Positions 24,026 through 53,686 of a stretch of DNA of 64,000 nucleotides are shown one piece after another. Source of the DNA: Krischvirus LF73P4; sequence record OZ035795.1. One strand, written 5' to 3'. Below the pieces are notes generated by a model. The model was not told the DNA's origin, did no database searches, and saw only the letters and a program-made list of their open reading frames with translations. The translations under genes were made by a program, and so were the position numbers. How positions within the stretch are numbered: position 1 is the stretch's first letter; each line of letters opens with the position of its first letter.

Positions 24026-24325
24026 ATGAGCAAAAAGAATAACATGATGATGAGTATGGCAAAGTTCATGGAAGCAGACCTGATCAAAAATACAGTACAG
24101 CATGAACGCCAGCGAGAAGCCGCAGTGATTGCAGAACAAGGTTTTCAGGTTATCCGCAATCCACCTAAAGATACGATTAAATCGAAATACAGAGACGATC
24201 TGAAAGACCATGAAGTACGGGAACTGGTTAATGATCTGCGTGACATTGCCATCAAATATCATGGTTATCAGTGCTTACGAGAACTGATCGCAGAGCGAGT
24301 AATGGATGCCCTGAAAAAAGATTAA
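24026..24325 (+). CDS. hypothetical protein
   Basis: 99 aa; GAGGA upstream. Confidence 0.45.
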   Translation: MSKKNNMMMSMAKFMEADLIKNTVQHERQREAAVIAEQGFQVIRNPPKDTIKSKYRDDLKDHEVRELVNDLRDIAIKYHGYQCLRELIAERVMDALKKD

Positions 24326-24332
24326 AAATCTG

Positions 24333-24361
24333 TTGACGCTGGATCGGGGATATATCATAAT
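24333..24361 (+). promoter_or_regulatory. promoter candidate TTGACG-17-CATAAT flanked by GGGGA/TCCCC
   Basis: -35 at 24333-24338, -10 at 24356-24361. Confidence 0.4.
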
Positions 24362-24391
24362 GTCCCCATCGAAAACAAAAGGTTGACTTAT

Positions 24392-31675: not shown

Positions 31676-31710
31676 TTGACACCAGAACAAGGGAGTAGTA
31701 ACATACTCCC
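31676..31710 (+). promoter_or_regulatory. repeated promoter + stem-loop cassette, copy 1 (TTGACA-17-TAACAT; GGGAGTA/TACTCCC)
   Basis: -35 at 31676-31681, -10 at 31699-31704, inverted repeat 31691-31710. Confidence 0.5.
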
Positions 31711-31735
31711 ATACCAAACAAAAGGAGAATCAAAG

Positions 31736-32008
31736 ATGAACAACGAAAACAGCAAGGTGTTAGCAATTGCCGATAAAGTAGGTTACTGGAAATGCTGGGA
31801 TGATATGGAGAAATTAGGCGGTCGCTATCTCGATAACTTAGAGTTGCATTATTGCCAAGCGCGTAATGCAGAAGTTGCGGGAGTAGCAATCGAAGATATT
31901 CCGTCTAAAGTCTTCGGATTCTCTAAAGATGATACTCTAGAATATGTTTTCAAGGCTGTTATGGATCAAGCATGGGAAGACGCAGAGACACGCGCTCTTG
32001 ATTGGTGA
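31736..32008 (+). CDS. hypothetical protein
   Basis: 90 aa; AGGAG upstream. Confidence 0.45.
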   Translation: MNNENSKVLAIADKVGYWKCWDDMEKLGGRYLDNLELHYCQARNAEVAGVAIEDIPSKVFGFSKDDTLEYVFKAVMDQAWEDAETRALDW

Positions 32009-32750: not shown

Positions 32751-32963
32751 ATGAAATCTATCGAGCAAGTAGTAACAGAGTTTATGAGCTACGAAGGAAA
32801 CCGCATCTTTGGACGTTCTCAAGTTCGCGAGATCGTAGAAGAAGTTGCGGGAGAGTTTGCGGAATCTGGTCACGTTATCACGCAAGAACGTAAAGAAGAA
32901 GCAGTAAGCCAGATCATGGCTATGCAGAAAATGCGTATTAATGCACGAGCGGGTAAAAATTAA
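32751..32963 (+). CDS. hypothetical protein
   Basis: 70-aa ORF; GGAG upstream. Confidence 0.45.
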   Translation: MKSIEQVVTEFMSYEGNRIFGRSQVREIVEEVAGEFAESGHVITQERKEEAVSQIMAMQKMRINARAGKN

Positions 32964-32973
32964 AAAATAGTTG

Positions 32974-33008
32974 TTGACACAGGATTAAGGGAGTAGTAAG
33001 ATACTCCC
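32974..33008 (+). promoter_or_regulatory. repeated promoter + stem-loop cassette, copy 4 (TTGACA-17-TAAGAT)
   Basis: -35 at 32974-32979, -10 at 32997-33002, inverted repeat 32989-33008. Confidence 0.5.
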
Positions 33009-33036
33009 ATCAAGACAAAACATTGAGGAATATATT

Positions 33037-35488: not shown

Positions 35489-35812
35489 ATGATCGAGTTT
35501 GAAATTGACAACTTTCACGAAAAAGCAGAAGACTTAACCAAAATTTTGATTAGTCGAGGTGCATATAATACGAAAGATATTATAAAAGAAGTTAATGTAG
35601 CGATGGACGCGATCCAAAAGGAATTTAAACATATTTCAGCGATTGGAGAAAATGGTCATCTTGAAGATGTTGAGCTGGTAGCACTGCGACGCTATTACTT
35701 CTTTGTTGATTGCATCATTGATCTAGCTAAAAATTATAGTCATTACATGAAAGATATTGTAAACGATGCACGTAAGTTGGCAGAGAATGTTTACGGGAAG
35801 TTTCCAGAATGA
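35489..35812 (+). CDS. hypothetical protein (paralog of 35042-35374)
   Basis: 107 aa; GAGG upstream of ATG 35489. Confidence 0.5.
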   Translation: MIEFEIDNFHEKAEDLTKILISRGAYNTKDIIKEVNVAMDAIQKEFKHISAIGENGHLEDVELVALRRYYFFVDCIIDLAKNYSHYMKDIVNDARKLAENVYGKFPE

Positions 35813-36057
35813 AATTAGAACAAGCGATTGTATACTTTGAGATGGGCTATGATATTGCTCGTGTAGAGTGGGAAGATGGTGATTTTGTCCGATTGATTGA
35901 TCTTCCAGAAACAGCTATTGCACTGGTCAAAGTAGAAAACGGCATACAACGAAATTACGCGTTTTCTGACGAAGACAAACAAGCCGATGACTGGTACGCT
36001 ACATGTTTTCATCATACAGCGTCAAAATGCGATTCAGGCGCGTCTATGCGTCAATAA
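35809..36057 (+). CDS. hypothetical protein
   Basis: 82-aa ORF. Confidence 0.45.
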   Translation: MKLEQAIVYFEMGYDIARVEWEDGDFVRLIDLPETAIALVKVENGIQRNYAFSDEDKQADDWYATCFHHTASKCDSGASMRQ

Positions 36058-36069
36058 ATGCGTCAATAA
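36046..36069 (+). repeat. perfect 12-bp tandem duplication ATGCGTCAATAA x2
   Basis: Read directly; duplicates last three codons plus stop of ORF 35809-36057. Confidence 0.8.
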
Positions 36070-36103
36070 AAAAGAAGGGGAGGCCGAAAGGCTTCCCCTT
36101 TAA
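36068..36103. terminator. bidirectional terminator between convergent early block and holin t
   Basis: AAGGGGAGGCC-gaaa-GGCTTCCCCTT hairpin flanked by A-run (5') and T-rich (3'). Confidence 0.6.
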
Positions 36104-36104
36104 G

Positions 36105-36761
36105 TTATCTAATCCTTCCGAGGATTCTGGCAGATTGATTGCAAAGAGTATCTAAATTCTCAATGTCAATATCCGGTTTATTCTTCCATGCAATGGAGAT
36201 ACTACCAGAATAGACATTATCGAGATTGAATATAGGGCAAGAATACATAAACCCTATATCGATACTCTCTAATTTCTTTTCTCTTGATGGAATATACTGG
36301 AAATCTTTATCGGTAAAATATGATTTACCTAAAAGATGCCTACGATATTCTTCACTCGTTTTATTGATAGGGAATCCGCCTAAATTTTTTTCATCGATTG
36401 TATGCGGTAACTTTCCTTCATATGCCACCAAATCAACAAAATAGTTTAGGTTTTTCGGACGAAAACTAAAAACAGCAGAAAAATCGGCATCAGCCGACAC
36501 ATGAACTATCTGTAACTGCTCCTGTGCTGCATTATCAAAATTGCGGTCTTTCTCTACCTGGAGAACGTGAGCATAAGTCTCATAACGAGTCTCTTTATAA
36601 AGCGCAAATAACTCGTTTTTACTATAAACGACAAATGCTAATATAGACAACACGACGGCAGCAAAAACACGAAGTACGAGCAACTCCGTGCTTTTAGTTG
36701 TGAAAATAGCGCGCAGGACATTTGAGATAGCAAAGTCTTTCCCTTTTTCAGAAACTTGCAT
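36105..36761 (-). CDS. t: holin T (lysis protein t)
   Basis: 218 aa, same length and strong similarity to T4 holin as recalled (LQIVHVSADADFSAVFSFRPKNLNYFVD...). Confidence 0.9.
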   Translation of the reverse strand: MQVSEKGKDFAISNVLRAIFTTKSTELLVLRVFAAVVLSILAFVVYSKNELFALYKETRYETYAHVLQVEKDRNFDNAAQEQLQIVHVSADADFSAVFSFRPKNLNYFVDLVAYEGKLPHTIDEKNLGGFPINKTSEEYRRHLLGKSYFTDKDFQYIPSREKKLESIDIGFMYSCPIFNLDNVYSGSISIAWKNKPDIDIENLDTLCNQSARILGRIR

Positions 36762-36794: not shown

Positions 36795-37034
36795 TTATTT
36801 AGGTAGTTGACTATCACTATTTTTATTTTGCTCGTTGCTATCTTCTGACTGATCTTTATTAAACTCCTTATAAAGTTCTTCCACAAAACGATCATCAATT
36901 GGCGTATTGGTATAAGCCGCAAGACGACGAGCGCAATAGAAGAAAATTTTAGTGAGCATCTTTTCACTAATTAACTTTGACAATAGTTTCATTCCGAAAT
37001 TAGACAAAGCACCAATGACGATATTATAGACCAT
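36795..37034 (-). CDS. hypothetical protein between adhesin and holin
   Basis: 79 aa; AAGGAG 8 nt upstream of ATG; hydrophobic N-terminus, acidic tail. Confidence 0.5.
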   Translation of the reverse strand: MVYNIVIGALSNFGMKLLSKLISEKMLTKIFFYCARRLAAYTNTPIDDRFVEELYKEFNKDQSEDSNEQNKNSDSQLPK

Positions 37035-37097
37035 AGCCGTTTCTCCTTAGTAGTTCCCTTCCGTGGGAGTTTTCCTTAATTCTTTTTATAATTGCGT

Positions 37098-37880
37098 CTA
37101 AACAGCCGGTCCGTAAATAGCTCCGCGATTTTGCCACGTTGGAGAAGACCCTATAACAGCATATCCAGAATCGCCGCCATTATATTCAGATCCTTGACCA
37201 CGAATATTACATCTACCTCCTGCGGCGCCTACCTCACCACCGCTTCCACCATTATAGATACCGTTCACGGACCCCGAACCGGGCGCATAAAGAGTACCAG
37301 CAGTTGCGCCTGATTGCATATCAATAGATCCGCCCGGCGCACCAAACGGACGCCCACCGCCACCGCCAAAGGTTAATCTCATTTGTGAAAAAGGAGAATA
37401 ATACCCGCCACCGCCACCGCCACCGCCACCTGCAATAGCTCCACCATTATTAATTCTTAGTCTCCCACCAATATCATTTTGAATACAATGCCCCCCGGCT
37501 GATCCAGGACCATTGCTACCGCCATTCCCGCCACGACCATACATCGTTACGCCATGTATATTCAACTGAACATATTCATTCGGTGTATCTCCGTACATAA
37601 AGAATAAAGGAACATCTTTAGAATATGATACTAAATCTCCAGTGATATTAAACACTATAGGTGTACTACCTGCTTCAAAGCATCTATCACGGAACCACTG
37701 ACCGTTGAAGTTATGGTCTGCACCAAGTGTATGAATAATTTCTCGCGAGCGACCTGCAAATTGACTCATCCAGCAAGGAACACCCAATCTTAATTGACCA
37801 GCCGCTTGACTCATCCATCGTTGTCCTGTTTCATTTGCGGCTGAACTTCCAATCCAACCAGGAACACCAACTACTGCCAT
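37098..37880 (-). CDS. 38: long tail fibre tip adhesin gp38 (T2-type, glycine-rich motifs)
   Basis: 260 aa; conserved N-terminal domain then poly-Gly runs separated by variable segments. Confidence 0.9.
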
Positions 37881-37916: not shown

Positions 37917-40697
37917 TTAGAATTTAAAATATTTACTAATTTTGCGAGCAATTTTAGTAAAGAAAGGAGTTTTCAATTCTTTAATTTCTTCACTCATTTC
38001 CTGAATAGCCTTAATTAAAAGAGCATTCACTGCCGAGTTAGAAATTGTCAGAACATCAGATCCATCAACTTCAACTTTAGATACAGCTTCCGGCAATTCT
38101 TTTTCAAGATCCTGAGCAATAATACCAGCTTCACGTTTAATCACACTACGATCTTTAATAGACTTAACTTTATCGTAAGTATAAACTTTCAGACGGCATA
38201 CTTTTTCAAGTGCTCCGTTTTCTAACTCTTCTTTATTAATCTTAAGACGGGAGTCAGAACGAATATACACATCGCTAAAGCTACCATTTCCTGGTGTATA
38301 AAAGAACCCATCATGATGGAATTCAAACACAGCTTGTGGGTGTCCAGCATCAGGAGAAGCCTCCGTGGATCCGACACGAATGATTGCTTGCCCCCACTGT
38401 GATGGAATACGACGCATACCAAAGTCAACAGCGGTGCTATATCCTTGATTGGTTATAACGCTTCTTGCTTTAAGAATAGGATAATAACTATCTTGACCAA
38501 CATAACCATGATCAACGAATAATGGAGCTTCTACTCGCCATTGGTTGCCCCAATCACCTGGTTGTCTGGCAACCCAACTTGCACCATTGATATACATACG
38601 ATCGCGGTTAACGTTAACCATTAAGGTATTTTGCGGGTTTAAAGATATCTCGCCAGAATTTGTAATATAAATTGCAGAATTACTAGCATAACTAAAAAAC
38701 CCTAATCCGTTATCAGCGCCTCCTTTCCCTATATACCAATTATTATTACCATCACAACTACCCAACAAATAAACCGAATCTCCAGATGACGGAGCATTCA
38801 AAACTATTGCGTCCGAACCACGATTAACAGTTATTTTATCGGAAGATTCTATTTGACCAAAGAATTTAGTTTTAATTGCACCAGTCGCTAAAGTACGTTC
38901 AGTGGAAAAATGAGCGCCTTTGCTATCTTCTAACTGAATAATGTTATCACGAGCGTTATTGCTATCACCCCAATGGTTAAATTTAAAATAATCTCGTGAT
39001 CCTAAACGTCCGGCGTCAAAAGTCATCAAGCCTTTCATGTTAATATCACCACCAAAAAATGCGGTGAGAGAATCACGTTTTAATTTTAAAACGTTAGCAC
39101 CACTAGTACCACCCAAAGTAACATCACCAGTTCTTAATTCATAACGGAAAGGTCTATTTGTATTAAAGTTTCCATCTTGATCATTTTCGTCGGTGGAAAG
39201 AATATAAAGACTCTCTCCATCATTACGTAAAAATGCACCAAATTTTCCGCCATACATACGGAATGCATTCAACGAGCGGAATTTAACTTCTGTTTTAAAT
39301 GTGGTAGTGTTATTAAGGTTAACAGTAGAGTTAAAGTTAACTGCGCCATTAAAATCTTGTTTAGCAGTCCAAGTATGTGATCCGTCTTCAAGAACAACAC
39401 GGCGAACTGTACAAGTTCTATTTCCCGGATTACCAGCAACACGAACGACAAAATAACGGTAGTTTGTCTGGGATACAGTACCACGCCAAACCTGAACAGT
39501 ACGCCCTGTGCCAGTGTGTTCGCTAGGACCGACAGAAAACATAACCAAGTTTCCGTCAATCGCACCCCAATCCATATTTGCTGGCATGTTCTTTATTTTG
39601 TTCAAAGGAACACTAAACATACTACCAGGGACAAAATCAAAGGTTTGCCAGTCTAGCTCCGCTAATTGAGATTTAACACCACCCATACCCAGAGTGATCG
39701 GCATAGAATAGGACGTATATACTTCGTACCAATTTCCCCAGATGTTATTTGTCATCGCACGTTCAAACACGCGAGATCGCGTAGTTGCACCCGTTCCTGC
39801 GGTAGTGAAACGTTGGAAAATAGCGGCACCGGAAGCACGCTGTTTAACCTCAAGCAATCCGGTCATCTCAACCGGAACACCTTCTGCAACTGGACGGTTA
39901 ATAACGGCATCAGTCCCTAAAATGTTATACAAGCCAGGAGAACGAAAATTATTAAGATCCCCGTCATAGAATGTGTTTGGAGTAACCATACCTACTTGTT
40001 GCCACGGTCCCCAATTCGGAGCTTCTGGATCCCATGCACCAGCAAGACAACGAACATATACAACACCCATTCGGGTAGTATAACGTTGCGTGCGAGAATA
40101 GTTACCACCTTCATAAATTTCTAAAAGACCTTGCGCGAGACCACCTTCTTCTGGGTAATTTCGAGAAAATGATGCAATGGAACTTAAACTATTTCGCCAT
40201 AACCCAAAATGAGAAGCATCACCTAAAGTATTCAAGTCTAGTGTAGTTGATAGTGGACGTGTGCCAGTTTGAATATTGCGCCACGGACCCCATGGACCAT
40301 CTACGCCATTCCATTTAGCAGACAAAGAACGGATATAAACGTTACCAGACCGAACAGTATAACGCTGAGTGCCAGCAAATTGACCAGCCACAAATACTTC
40401 TAATACACCTACAGCATTCTCTTCTGGGAATTTATTTGCTGGCTGCGCATTTGTTGAAGTTGATTTAGACCAAACGCCAGTAAATTTACCAGTAGGTCCA
40501 TAATTATCTAAATTTGCATCAGATGGCAACTCACCGCGAAAGTGTCCCAAAGTAATTACATTATTGCTGTCATCTTTTGTATATAGTTCTCGATCCGCTA
40601 GGTTAATAGCAAGTTCACCCGGAGTTAGAATATTCGCATCCGGCTTGCGACCTGCCGTACTTGTTCTTTTAAATTGGATTCTCTGTAAATCTGCCAT
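37917..40697 (-). CDS. 37: long tail fibre distal subunit gp37, with C-terminal intramolecular-chaperone-like segment
   Basis: 926 aa; N-terminus QRIQFKRTSTAG...GELAINL like T4 gp37; SDSRLK motif about 113 aa from C-terminus. Confidence 0.9.
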   Translation of the reverse strand: MADLQRIQFKRTSTAGRKPDANILTPGELAINLADRELYTKDDSNNVITLGHFRGELPSDANLDNYGPTGKFTGVWSKSTSTNAQPANKFPEENAVGVLEVFVAGQFAGTQRYTVRSGNVYIRSLSAKWNGVDGPWGPWRNIQTGTRPLSTTLDLNTLGDASHFGLWRNSLSSIASFSRNYPEEGGLAQGLLEIYEGGNYSRTQRYTTRMGVVYVRCLAGAWDPEAPNWGPWQQVGMVTPNTFYDGDLNNFRSPGLYNILGTDAVINRPVAEGVPVEMTGLLEVKQRASGAAIFQRFTTAGTGATTRSRVFERAMTNNIWGNWYEVYTSYSMPITLGMGGVKSQLAELDWQTFDFVPGSMFSVPLNKIKNMPANMDWGAIDGNLVMFSVGPSEHTGTGRTVQVWRGTVSQTNYRYFVVRVAGNPGNRTCTVRRVVLEDGSHTWTAKQDFNGAVNFNSTVNLNNTTTFKTEVKFRSLNAFRMYGGKFGAFLRNDGESLYILSTDENDQDGNFNTNRPFRYELRTGDVTLGGTSGANVLKLKRDSLTAFFGGDINMKGLMTFDAGRLGSRDYFKFNHWGDSNNARDNIIQLEDSKGAHFSTERTLATGAIKTKFFGQIESSDKITVNRGSDAIVLNAPSSGDSVYLLGSCDGNNNWYIGKGGADNGLGFFSYASNSAIYITNSGEISLNPQNTLMVNVNRDRMYINGASWVARQPGDWGNQWRVEAPLFVDHGYVGQDSYYPILKARSVITNQGYSTAVDFGMRRIPSQWGQAIIRVGSTEASPDAGHPQAVFEFHHDGFFYTPGNGSFSDVYIRSDSRLKINKEELENGALEKVCRLKVYTYDKVKSIKDRSVIKREAGIIAQDLEKELPEAVSKVEVDGSDVLTISNSAVNALLIKAIQEMSEEIKELKTPFFTKIARKISKYFKF

Positions 40698-40764: not shown

Positions 40765-42255
40765 TTAGAAAGTACCAAAATCAATTACCGCATTAAGCGG
40801 AACAGCGCCAACATCATCAGGAGTTGGTTTGTGTCCTTCGTGGTATAATTCAAATGTATCGGTGTCCTGAGTATTGTTGCGTGATTTAACGAAAATAATT
40901 TTAGAATCATGTGTGATGCCTAGTTTCTCGTGCGCTTTAATATCACTAACACGATGAATCATTGCTGTGCCATCTAAGCTATTAAGTCCAGCGTAGCAAT
41001 TATCACCATTATAGTTAGCTTTTGCGGTACGAACGCCGTTTGCAGCGGGAACTGTCAAAGCACCTCTCATGGTATCGCCAGTCACATTAACATAGCGAGC
41101 ATCAGCCAATTTACGGTGATCTACATAGTTCCATGCGGTCCATGATTCATTAGAACAAGAACGCCAGCACATCGGATGATCAATAGATTCAGGATAGTAT
41201 ACCTGAACAATTCGACGAGTACCGACCGCATCTTCTGGGCGATATACCATCAAAACGCCGTTATAATAGCTATCAGACGGTTTATTAGTACCTGATCCAG
41301 CATTTTCCACACGATAGATACCGCGATTAATAAGAGTGTTCCAATCAACGTTTCCAATGATTGTTGGATTTGCTACCATTGATTTTTTCTCAAAGTAGCT
41401 CAAACGAACCAATTCATTAGGACCAGCAGGATCGTTTGTCGCCAACATTCTAGGCGCTTGCAAGTTACCTTCCATAATATCACCAGCACGTTTAACCTGT
41501 GCATCATTGGTGACATTACCTAGTCCAACATCGGCTTTAGTCGGTTTATTGTTGGTGTGGTAGAATCTACCTGCCTTGCCATTAACAGAAATTGTCGGCT
41601 CGTTTTTGCTACTGAATGCCAAAGTATCAAGACTATTTCCAAAATAAATGGCATTAGAATCGAAAGCAATGAAACCACGATCCCGCGCAAGTATTTTCGA
41701 ATTAACATCAAGTTTAAATGTAGCCGTGTTTAAATTATACGTTCCCGTGAGAGTATCACCGCGACGAGACACCAAATCCAAATCATTGTTTGTCGGCTTA
41801 TTAACAGGACTATAGACGCGTTGACCAGTGTCTTTAATGGTTGTCCCTTCGATGGTCCCTTTAGTTTTAAAATCACCTGTGGTAGTGTCAATATAAGCCA
41901 TGATAACATCATCACGAGCATTAACAAAACCAATAGATTTCCACGAATGCAAACCCCAACTTACACCATCAAAGTTAGCCGCATCGCTCTTTCCTTTAAA
42001 GATCCCGTTCTTTTTGGTTTCTCCACCGGATGCGCTACCTACGCTTAAACCTTCCTCAAAATGGACCAGTTTCTGAAATGTACCACCCTCAGATGCACTA
42101 ACAGCATCAAAATCGGCAGCCGAAGGTTTATCAAAAGCGGTATAGATTTTATGACCTTTATAGAAAAGCTGATCACCCGCTGGCTGGATCGTCAAGTTTC
42201 CTTGCGTCCAAATGGGAGATCCGCCTACAGTAGATCCATGTTTCAAATCTGCCAT
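40765..42255 (-). CDS. 36: long tail fibre hinge/connector protein, gp36-like (enlarged)
   Basis: 496 aa; N-terminus MADLKHGSTVGGSPIWTQGN...PAGD resembles T4 gp36; directly upstream of gene 37. Confidence 0.6.
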   Translation of the reverse strand: MADLKHGSTVGGSPIWTQGNLTIQPAGDQLFYKGHKIYTAFDKPSAADFDAVSASEGGTFQKLVHFEEGLSVGSASGGETKKNGIFKGKSDAANFDGVSWGLHSWKSIGFVNARDDVIMAYIDTTTGDFKTKGTIEGTTIKDTGQRVYSPVNKPTNNDLDLVSRRGDTLTGTYNLNTATFKLDVNSKILARDRGFIAFDSNAIYFGNSLDTLAFSSKNEPTISVNGKAGRFYHTNNKPTKADVGLGNVTNDAQVKRAGDIMEGNLQAPRMLATNDPAGPNELVRLSYFEKKSMVANPTIIGNVDWNTLINRGIYRVENAGSGTNKPSDSYYNGVLMVYRPEDAVGTRRIVQVYYPESIDHPMCWRSCSNESWTAWNYVDHRKLADARYVNVTGDTMRGALTVPAANGVRTAKANYNGDNCYAGLNSLDGTAMIHRVSDIKAHEKLGITHDSKIIFVKSRNNTQDTDTFELYHEGHKPTPDDVGAVPLNAVIDFGTF

Positions 42256-42288: not shown

Positions 42289-42296
42289 TATTTATA
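42289..42296 (-). promoter_or_regulatory. T4-type late promoter box TATAAATA
   Basis: Exact TATAAATA on - strand, 33 nt upstream of gp36-like ATG. Confidence 0.55.
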
Positions 42297-53366: not shown

Positions 53367-53371
53367 TGGTG

Positions 53372-53399
53372 TTGACAATATTATTTGGTAAGGTATAAT
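53372..53399 (+). promoter_or_regulatory. near-consensus sigma70-type promoter TTGACA-16-TATAAT
   Basis: -35 at 53372-53377, -10 at 53394-53399, 30 nt upstream of ATG 53429. Confidence 0.55.
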
Positions 53400-53428
53400 G
53401 CTCACATCTAAACAACGGAGGATAAATT

Positions 53429-53686
53429 ATGGCACGTCGTAAATTTACAGATAATTGTGAAGCAATTCAGGTATCCCCTTGCGGTTGGTATGTGATCGCG
53501 AACGGTGAAAAGATCGGAGAGATCATCGATCATACTCATTCATCACTAGCCGATTACACCGATGAACTATGGGAGGGTATCAACTTCATGAATGACACTA
53601 AACGATTCAAGACTATCGACGAAGCTATCTATTTTGTGTATAATCCAACTTTCGGTATGTGGGGAACTAGAAAATGGCACGCGTAA
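53429..53686 (+). CDS. hypothetical protein (cassette gene 1)
   Basis: 85 aa; GGAGGA 6 nt upstream. Confidence 0.5.
   Translation: MARRKFTDNCEAIQVSPCGWYVIANGEKIGEIIDHTHSSLADYTDELWEGINFMNDTKRFKTIDEAIYFVYNPTFGMWGTRKWHA

Follow-up and report, generated by a model that had tools for sequence, protein, structure and literature searches.

What does the small gene between the adhesin gene 38 and the holin gene t of Krischvirus LF73P4 do? The gene (ORF79, product MVYNIVIGALSNFGMKLLSKLISEKMLTKIFFYCARRLAAYTNTPIDDRFVEELYKEFNKDQSEDSNEQNKNSDSQLPK) was found in a 64,000-nt stretch of phage DNA (OZ035795.1), which is called the window here. The initial annotation listed it as an unassigned 79-aa gene and suggested a role in fibre assembly or in lysis control, for example as an antiholin-like modulator. 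Comparison with other phages points elsewhere within lysis: ORF79 probably encodes a small P18-family protein that is made late, together with the holin, and assists in lysis.

The features of the locus are collected in Table 1. ORF79 is a real gene, as had been claimed from its ribosome binding site: AAGGAG is found exactly 8 nt before the ATG, the gene is conserved in relatives and its divergence indicates purifying selection. The neighbours had also been named correctly; Pfam matches (GP38 and Phage_holin_T) identify the gp38 adhesin upstream and holin t downstream, and t starts 33 nt past the ORF79 stop. TATAAATA is the sole exact late-promoter match upstream of the gene block and, because of this, is the presumed promoter for 36-37-38-ORF79-t. 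The terminator after t would close this late fibre-lysis transcription unit. With TATAAATA before the gp36-like gene and the terminator after t, ORF79 is, judging from position alone, the putative fourth gene of the unit.

Table 1. Features of the fibre-holin region of the window
Feature	Position	Strand	Details
ORF79, 79-aa P18/gp l-family CDS	36795..37034	minus	ATG 37034-37032, stop 36797-36795; orthologue of RB49 RB49p252/Dc5
Shine-Dalgarno AAGGAG	37043..37048	minus	8 nt 5' of ORF79 ATG; read directly from sequence
Holin t, class III, T4 T family	36105..36761	minus	Phage_holin_T 8e-61
gp38 adhesin (T2/T6/S16 type)	37098..37880	minus	Pfam GP38 4e-71, Gp38_N
gp37 distal long-tail-fibre subunit with C-terminal, self-cleaving Peptidase_S74 chaperone domain	37917..40697	minus	
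gp36-like tail-fibre protein, first gene of unit	40765..42255	minus	
T4-type late promoter box TATAAATA	42289..42296	minus	33 nt 5' of gp36-like ATG
Intrinsic terminator directly 3' of t	36065..36100	minus	hairpin 36100-36075 (-16.8 kcal/mol), then U-run

Other elements are visible around the gene. The spacer between gp38 and ORF79 (63 nt; 37051-37097, minus strand) contains a TATAAAAA box at the gp38 stop, with one mismatch to the late-promoter consensus, and a small CUCCC...GGGA hairpin right before the ORF79 Shine-Dalgarno sequence. On the plus strand, an 82-aa ORF (35809-36057) is convergent with t and has the terminator region in common with it. This ORF matches Pfam PF11195 'Tad2-like' (Thoeris anti-defence 2-like domain; 27.9 bits, cut-off 25, E=3e-6), which is also marked in relatives.

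The window belongs to Krischvirus (RB49/JSE-like), and T4 is the wrong reference for it. The remark that T4 has no gene at this position was accurate: the T4 38-t gap is only 20 nt long and holds no gene. 'Unassigned' is correct relative to T4 only; in RB49 the gene has been annotated since the genome paper (RB49p252/Dc5). The orthologues of RB49, JSE, KMB43 and ECD7 are 95-100% identical, occupy the same place upstream of t and are called 'hypothetical protein'. That of RB49 (L010:5700-5939, which is RB49 154699-154938) differs from ORF79 in its GTG start and in being annotated twice, as RB49p252 (79 codons) and as 'dc5' (RB49p253), which is shorter and begins at the internal Met15. The GTG start probably explains the second, shorter 'Dc5' CDS. 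Conservation indicates that the long start of ORF79 is the correct one, because both F13, which is almost invariant, and the conserved helix 1 lie before Met15. A phage-collection paper draws 'the Dc5 ORF' in the fibre locus of pseudo-T-even phages (PMC6832132).

A survey of presence or absence across relatives had been proposed as a check, and its outcome favours a functional gene. By tblastn, 58 phage records contain ORF79 with at least 90% identity, and 59 records match the adjacent baseplate block; the gene therefore appears to be near-universal in the genus. The 2-kb block around it is 96-99% identical to Krischvirus genomes, among them KMB43, FL04, MIZ4/5 and FL15, and the portion with ORF79 and t shows 97% identity to JSE and further members of this group. 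Orthologues in metagenomic T4-like contigs are 58-75% identical, with dN/dS values (0.14-0.23) that indicate purifying selection. Changes among these diverged orthologues fall mostly in the tail and at the extreme N-terminus.

The gp38 adhesin upstream of ORF79 is a variable cassette. It is found here in about 11 relatives (8 with matches over 80% or more of the 2-kb block and 3 with matches over 76% of it) and is absent from this position in RB49 and JSE; in these two phages and most others, gp37 is directly followed by the Dc5 ORF. Homology to JSE picks up again approximately 10 nt past the gp38 stop codon.

Colinearity of the window with published Krischvirus genomes breaks down at a junction (~42300). 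From ~42302 it matches a head-completion/baseplate block (DNA end protector, head completion protein, baseplate hub and wedge genes), which in phage FL15 is located ~70 kb away from the fibre/holin block. No match to the RB49 gp34, gp35, nrd and pseT region was found anywhere in the window. The junction is either a genuine rearrangement/deletion or an assembly join. In addition, segments of 50-67 nt at ~24325-24374, 31676-31739, 32957-33018 and 53368-53431 resemble intergenic stretches from the early region of RB49 (84-89% identity); these may be repeated promoter/terminator (PeSL-like) motifs.

ORF79 belongs to the family of gp l of Pseudoalteromonas phage PM2, which is P18 (gene XVIII); PM2 gp k is P17. 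Profile comparisons support this assignment well, and they describe a remote relationship. ORF79 matches PHROG 402 (function unknown) with E=5e-20, and PM2 gp l matches the same PHROG with E=8e-14. Orthologues at 58-95% identity all carry PF26925, named 'Phage_PM2_Gpl'; this label comes via precomputed annotation of the orthologues, not via scoring of the window protein. PM2 gp l has 51 aa (MFSTLAKYLAVKLLTETFIKRVCLATAKHLANKSENTLDNELIDALEDALN); its gene closes the late operon and overlaps gene k. When a family HMM built from 219 family sequences and the window ORF was compared with 1841 ORFs, it matched PM2 gp l at 34.5 bits (E=1.4e-9) and otherwise, at E<=10, nothing but genes of the family itself in the window and the loci. 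Aligning the family alignment to gp l with hhalign gave 93% probability and E=3e-7 over 43 columns. Pairwise BLASTP of the window ORF against gp l was not significant (E=0.58), and tblastn with gp l gave weak matches to the family member in phage ECO319P1 and to ORFs of cyanomyoviruses. Searches of Pfam-A (in a copy without PF26925), NCBIfam and PDB sequences with ORF79 returned noise only; across the Pfam, PHROGs and NCBIfam scans, the matches were limited to PHROG 402 and a further two families without known function. ORF79 has the features of a family member: a profile match that includes the founding member, the stand-alone size, the helical core and turn motif, and a place in a putative late unit with a lysis gene.

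The relationship to PM2 has been noted in the literature. Homologues of P18 were stated for 'PaP3, Felix 01, and RB49' and for the cyanophages P-SSM4, S-PM2 and P-SSM2 (PMC1950889). The RB49 homologue meant there is almost certainly the orthologue of ORF79, because ORF79 is the sole match to the family HMM within the window and RB49 112-159 kb. The gene, its conservation and its likeness to PM2 P18 are on record, the likeness since 2007, and a Pfam family exists. An exhaustive search with the family profile yielded 364 cluster representatives; nearly all of the best 150 of these are stand-alone proteins of 50-90 aa. One match, the 4303-aa P0151, was discarded as a false positive, being a repetitive surface protein with a repeated 'TADPTDDEF' peptide.

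The product of ORF79 has a net charge of 0. Its N-terminus had been described as hydrophobic or amphipathic; it is amphipathic, and its hydrophobicity is moderate, with a best 19-residue Kyte-Doolittle mean of 1.31. This is under the usual transmembrane-helix threshold (a mean of 1.6 over 19 residues), and the transmembrane prediction proposed as a check consequently gives no membrane crossing for the window protein. Across the family, helix 1 is a borderline candidate for a membrane-inserting segment: its mean is at least 1.6 in 99 of 218 members, and the window protein lies below this value. The C-terminus is acidic, as described (net charge -3 over the last 19 residues), and such a tail is present in Krischviruses only. 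The protein has no signal peptide and no lipobox; its sole Cys, C34, is inside helix 2.

An AlphaFold model of ORF79 based on a 141-sequence alignment has a pLDDT of 79, with predicted helices at residues 2-21, 24-41 and 45-73; the acidic tail is modelled with low confidence (pLDDT ~55). An earlier model from 37 sequences was poor (pLDDT 62) and was set aside. In those 37 sequences, F13, E24, F31, F32, A35, T42, T44, D47, D48 and F50 are invariant or nearly invariant, and T42, D47 and D48 reach at least 90% in the 141 sequences. The conserved motif E..FF..A..TxTxxDD.F is located at the turn between helices 2 and 3, with E24 at the junction of helices 1 and 2. The conserved residues could be an aromatic core together with helix-capping residues. 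Foldseek found nothing significant in the PDB; in BFVD it found the ECD7 orthologue, and beyond this only small proteins of cyanophages and Vibrio phages that fell short of significance. The TxTxxDD motif may resemble N-terminal segments of some MscS-type channels, a likeness that has no part in the reading given here.

To our knowledge, PM2 P18 is the only member of the family ever studied. P18 and the ORF79 protein are both small and helical and have no signal peptide. They have a common core that consists of a hydrophobic helix, a conserved Glu, an amphipathic helix, a polar turn with acidic residues and an acidic helix. Both are encoded at the end of a late operon beside a holin gene; in PM2 l comes after the holin gene k, whereas ORF79 comes before t. 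P18 differs in being shorter, without ~8 N-terminal residues and the acidic tail, and in having SxNxxDN in place of TxTxxDD. PM2 has neither spanins nor a tail, whereas Krischviruses have both. Two papers (PMC6356626, PMC9502842) state that P17 permeabilises the cytoplasmic membrane of the host, that degradation of the wall is probably due to host enzymes or P5, and that P18, a lysis factor defined genetically, is then needed for disruption of the outer membrane; the source cited there for the roles of P17 and P18 is Krupovic et al. 2007, Mol Microbiol 64:1635.

Across phages the family is strongly associated with holin and endolysin genes. In every T4-like contig, the P18-like gene is directly upstream of a Phage_holin_T gene. 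The gene before it varies: it may be an S74-type gp37, a gp38 adhesin, a Gp10_C-type fibre or three 100-aa ORFs. In Felix O1-like phages and Erwinia Kolesnikvirus phages, the P18-like gene comes after the tail fibre, and it abuts or overlaps by one base the gene for a 111-124-aa protein with one N-terminal transmembrane domain (TMD) and a coiled coil. This neighbour corresponds to phrog_4038 and is called 'holin' in the record of phage Mordin (Center for Phage Technology); for phage Mushroom, the same center gives 'class-III holin, N-in, C-out' (PMC4392139). The P18 gene of PM2 overlaps the P17 gene. In IMG/VR contigs, P18-like genes abut a GH108 endolysin (L004, L045), a GH24 lysozyme (L051, L053) or an M15 peptidase (L054). 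Small genes encoding a TMD and a coiled coil overlap or abut the P18-like gene in L052 and L055, and one lies ~100 nt upstream of it in L053. The exception is Grimontviridae, where the P18-like gene is found between capsid-associated and tail(-tubular) genes, with no recognisable lysis genes beside it.

The idea of a conserved two-gene module was rejected. Comparison of the Felix-type 'holin' and the L052, L053 and L055 neighbours with PM2 P17 or T by hhalign gave probabilities of at most 1%; the one-TMD neighbours appear to have only their architecture in common with PM2 P17 and T. Three of the one-TMD coiled-coil neighbours (L003:4187-4558, L006:3701-4036 and L052:2720-2992) have weak matches to 'Rz-like spanin' phrog_739 (E=0.009 and 0.002), and one protein among them is annotated 'holin' in phage Mordin; they may be class III holins or i-spanin-like proteins.

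Two variants in IMG/VR (L053:1780-2013 and L054:1015-1284) have an extra glycine-rich N-terminal transmembrane helix before the P18 domain. Their genes have that of a small TMD protein on one side and an endolysin gene (GH24 or M15) on the other, which gives a compact order holin / P18-like / endolysin. Since positive charges follow the extra TMD, the positive-inside rule suggests that the P18 domain of these variants faces the cytoplasm.

Homology to P18 implicates ORF79 in the same stage of lysis as the spanins (lambda Rz/Rz1; T4 PseT.3/PseT.2). This stage, disruption of the outer membrane, is most important where that membrane is stabilised by divalent cations. In several phages, the spanin slot beside the endolysin is occupied by the P18-like gene. 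The ORF79 protein is nevertheless unlike spanins: it has neither the N-terminal TMD and periplasmic coiled coil of an i-spanin nor the lipobox of o- and u-spanins, and it lacks an export signal. Kongari et al. 2018 list PM2, PaP3, P-SSM2, P-SSM4 and S-PM2 among 'spanin-less' phages; they assign RB49, JSE and Phi1 to the T4 spanin family and Felix O1 to the JH2 spanin group (PMC6139136). By that classification, four of the six tailed phages stated to have P18 homologues in PMC1950889 (PaP3, P-SSM2, P-SSM4 and S-PM2) are spanin-less, in addition to PM2. A scan for lipoboxes, in which RB49 PseT.2 was detected as a control, found no o-spanin or u-spanin candidate in the flanks (~1-4 kb each side) of most P18-like cassettes. 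In RB49, the P18-like gene coexists with true spanins, and the RB49 record annotates pseT.2 and pseT.3 as such. Spanin genes were looked for within the window and are absent; this is explained by the loss of colinearity with RB49 beyond ~42.3 kb.

How might the protein contribute to lysis? Having no signal peptide or lipobox, it would collect either in the cytoplasm or on the inner side of the cytoplasmic membrane. Once the T holin opens the membrane, the protein would reach the periplasm, and it would help in the last step of envelope destruction beside the PseT.3/PseT.2 spanins of Krischviruses. We infer both its route to the outer membrane and the damage there. Its mode of action on the membrane is speculation: helices that are amphipathic might be responsible, or the DD motif and the acidic tail might bind cations. 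As Krischviruses have spanins as well, the protein may contribute only under certain conditions, such as high divalent-cation concentrations.

Several observations weigh against an accessory lysis protein. The link to PM2 P18 is remote and the motif is degenerate in PM2. RB49, JSE and Phi1 have complete two-component spanins, so that an outer-membrane role would be redundant or conditional in Krischvirus LF73P4; the Felix O1 group also has complete two-component spanins. The Grimontviridae gene has no recognisable lysis neighbours, and structural analogues offer no mechanistic hint. The ORF79 protein also has no predicted membrane crossing, signal peptide or lipobox, and with a net charge of 0 it is not a cationic membrane-active peptide. 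In its charge it differs from the 'disruptin' gp28 of phage phiKT, a small, amphipathic, spanin-independent protein which is strongly cationic, resembles antimicrobial peptides and is implicated in disrupting the outer membrane after the holin and endolysin have acted; the ORF79 protein, with its acidic tail, can be likened to gp28 by description only.

Action at the level of the holin is the main rival to an accessory lysis protein. The ORF79 protein would then be a regulator or co-factor on the cytoplasmic side, either an antiholin like T4 RIII or a partner that tunes triggering; we consider this rather unlikely, and an antiholin role is possible but not favoured. The T4 antiholins RIII and RI are small and functionally tied to the T holin, and RIII is cytoplasmic and similar in size to the ORF79 protein. 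The RB49 record has no gene annotated rIII between 30 and 31. P18-like genes are joined to three kinds of one-TMD neighbour without mutual similarity (T, PM2 P17 and the Felix-type phrog_4038), whose holin status comes from Pfam for T, from the literature for P17 and from one record for phrog_4038. Frequent overlap with these neighbour genes suggests coupled synthesis. The window protein has no export signal, which makes the cytoplasm its likely primary location, and the charge pattern of L053 and L054 suggests the same side for their P18 domain. Spanins are already present in Krischviruses; a different job for the protein is hence plausible. However, a conserved binding interface is hard to see among one-TMD neighbours that have no mutual homology, and in L004, L045 and L051 the gene adjoins an endolysin, with no holin directly adjacent. 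ORF79 also resembles no antiholin family described in Pfam, PHROGs or NCBIfam. The sole phenotype reported for the family (PMC6356626, PMC9502842) is an outer-membrane defect, not a change in lysis timing. The suggested role in lysis is supported, in broad terms, by membership of the PM2 P18 family and by the position beside holins and endolysins; the antiholin-like modulator finds no support in these comparisons.

The initial annotation also offered fibre assembly. On this view the product, encoded where the fibre operon ends, would be an assembly factor for the tail fibre or the virion, or a minor component of the virion. ORF79 is the last but one gene of the Krischvirus fibre operon, its relatives follow tail-fibre genes in Felix O1-like phages, and the Grimontviridae gene is between capsid-associated and tail-tubular genes. 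Such a role is very unlikely nonetheless. The place before t is kept whatever fibre gene is upstream, and ORF79 is unchanged behind all four fibre arrangements (S74-type gp37, gp37 with gp38, Gp10_C-type, three 100-aa ORFs). The family is present in PM2, which is tail-less, and elsewhere it adjoins endolysins with no fibre gene nearby. Scans of Pfam, PHROGs and NCBIfam revealed no likeness to gp38, gp57A or Tfa-type chaperones. Position alone is no argument, since the holin gene itself ends the fibre operon in T4-like and Felix-like phages. A membrane-associated protein unrelated to lysis, for example one for superinfection exclusion or modification of the host envelope, is highly improbable. 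ORF79 does encode a small protein with a hydrophobic N-terminus, and proteins of this kind are often encoded near receptor-binding genes. Unlike receptor-specific exclusion proteins, however, the family keeps its core across unrelated receptors and hosts (Escherichia, Salmonella, Erwinia, Vibrio, Pseudoalteromonas); in addition, it is tied to lysis genes and here lies in a late operon. Small size is all that would point to a chance or non-functional ORF, an explanation that is practically excluded for a gene with a Shine-Dalgarno sequence, dN/dS of 0.14-0.23, ~58 Krischvirus-like records and 364 family representatives.

An accessory lysis protein of the P18 family consequently remains the preferred reading of ORF79, and 'P18/gp l-family putative lysis accessory protein' is a suitable label for annotation. 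This labelling covers ~58 Krischvirus genomes and several hundred genomes of Felix O1-like, Erwinia, Vibrio and other phages. More tentatively, P18-type proteins, with their 364 sequence clusters, could form a widespread class of tailed-phage lysis proteins, which act as disruptors where spanins are lacking and have a distinct, holin-coupled job where spanins are present. If this is true, PM2, PaP3 and cyanomyoviruses would be the spanin-less users of a P18-type outer-membrane disruptor. In RB49 and Felix O1, the job would be, for example, lysis at high divalent-cation concentrations or control of class III holin triggering. A knockout in a Krischvirus would then have a conditional lysis phenotype, which T4, without the gene, cannot show. 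The puzzle is that spanin-bearing phages keep a P18-like gene glued to the holin gene. Krischviruses of E. coli and Felix O1-like phages would offer genetically tractable systems for a spanin-independent lysis factor.
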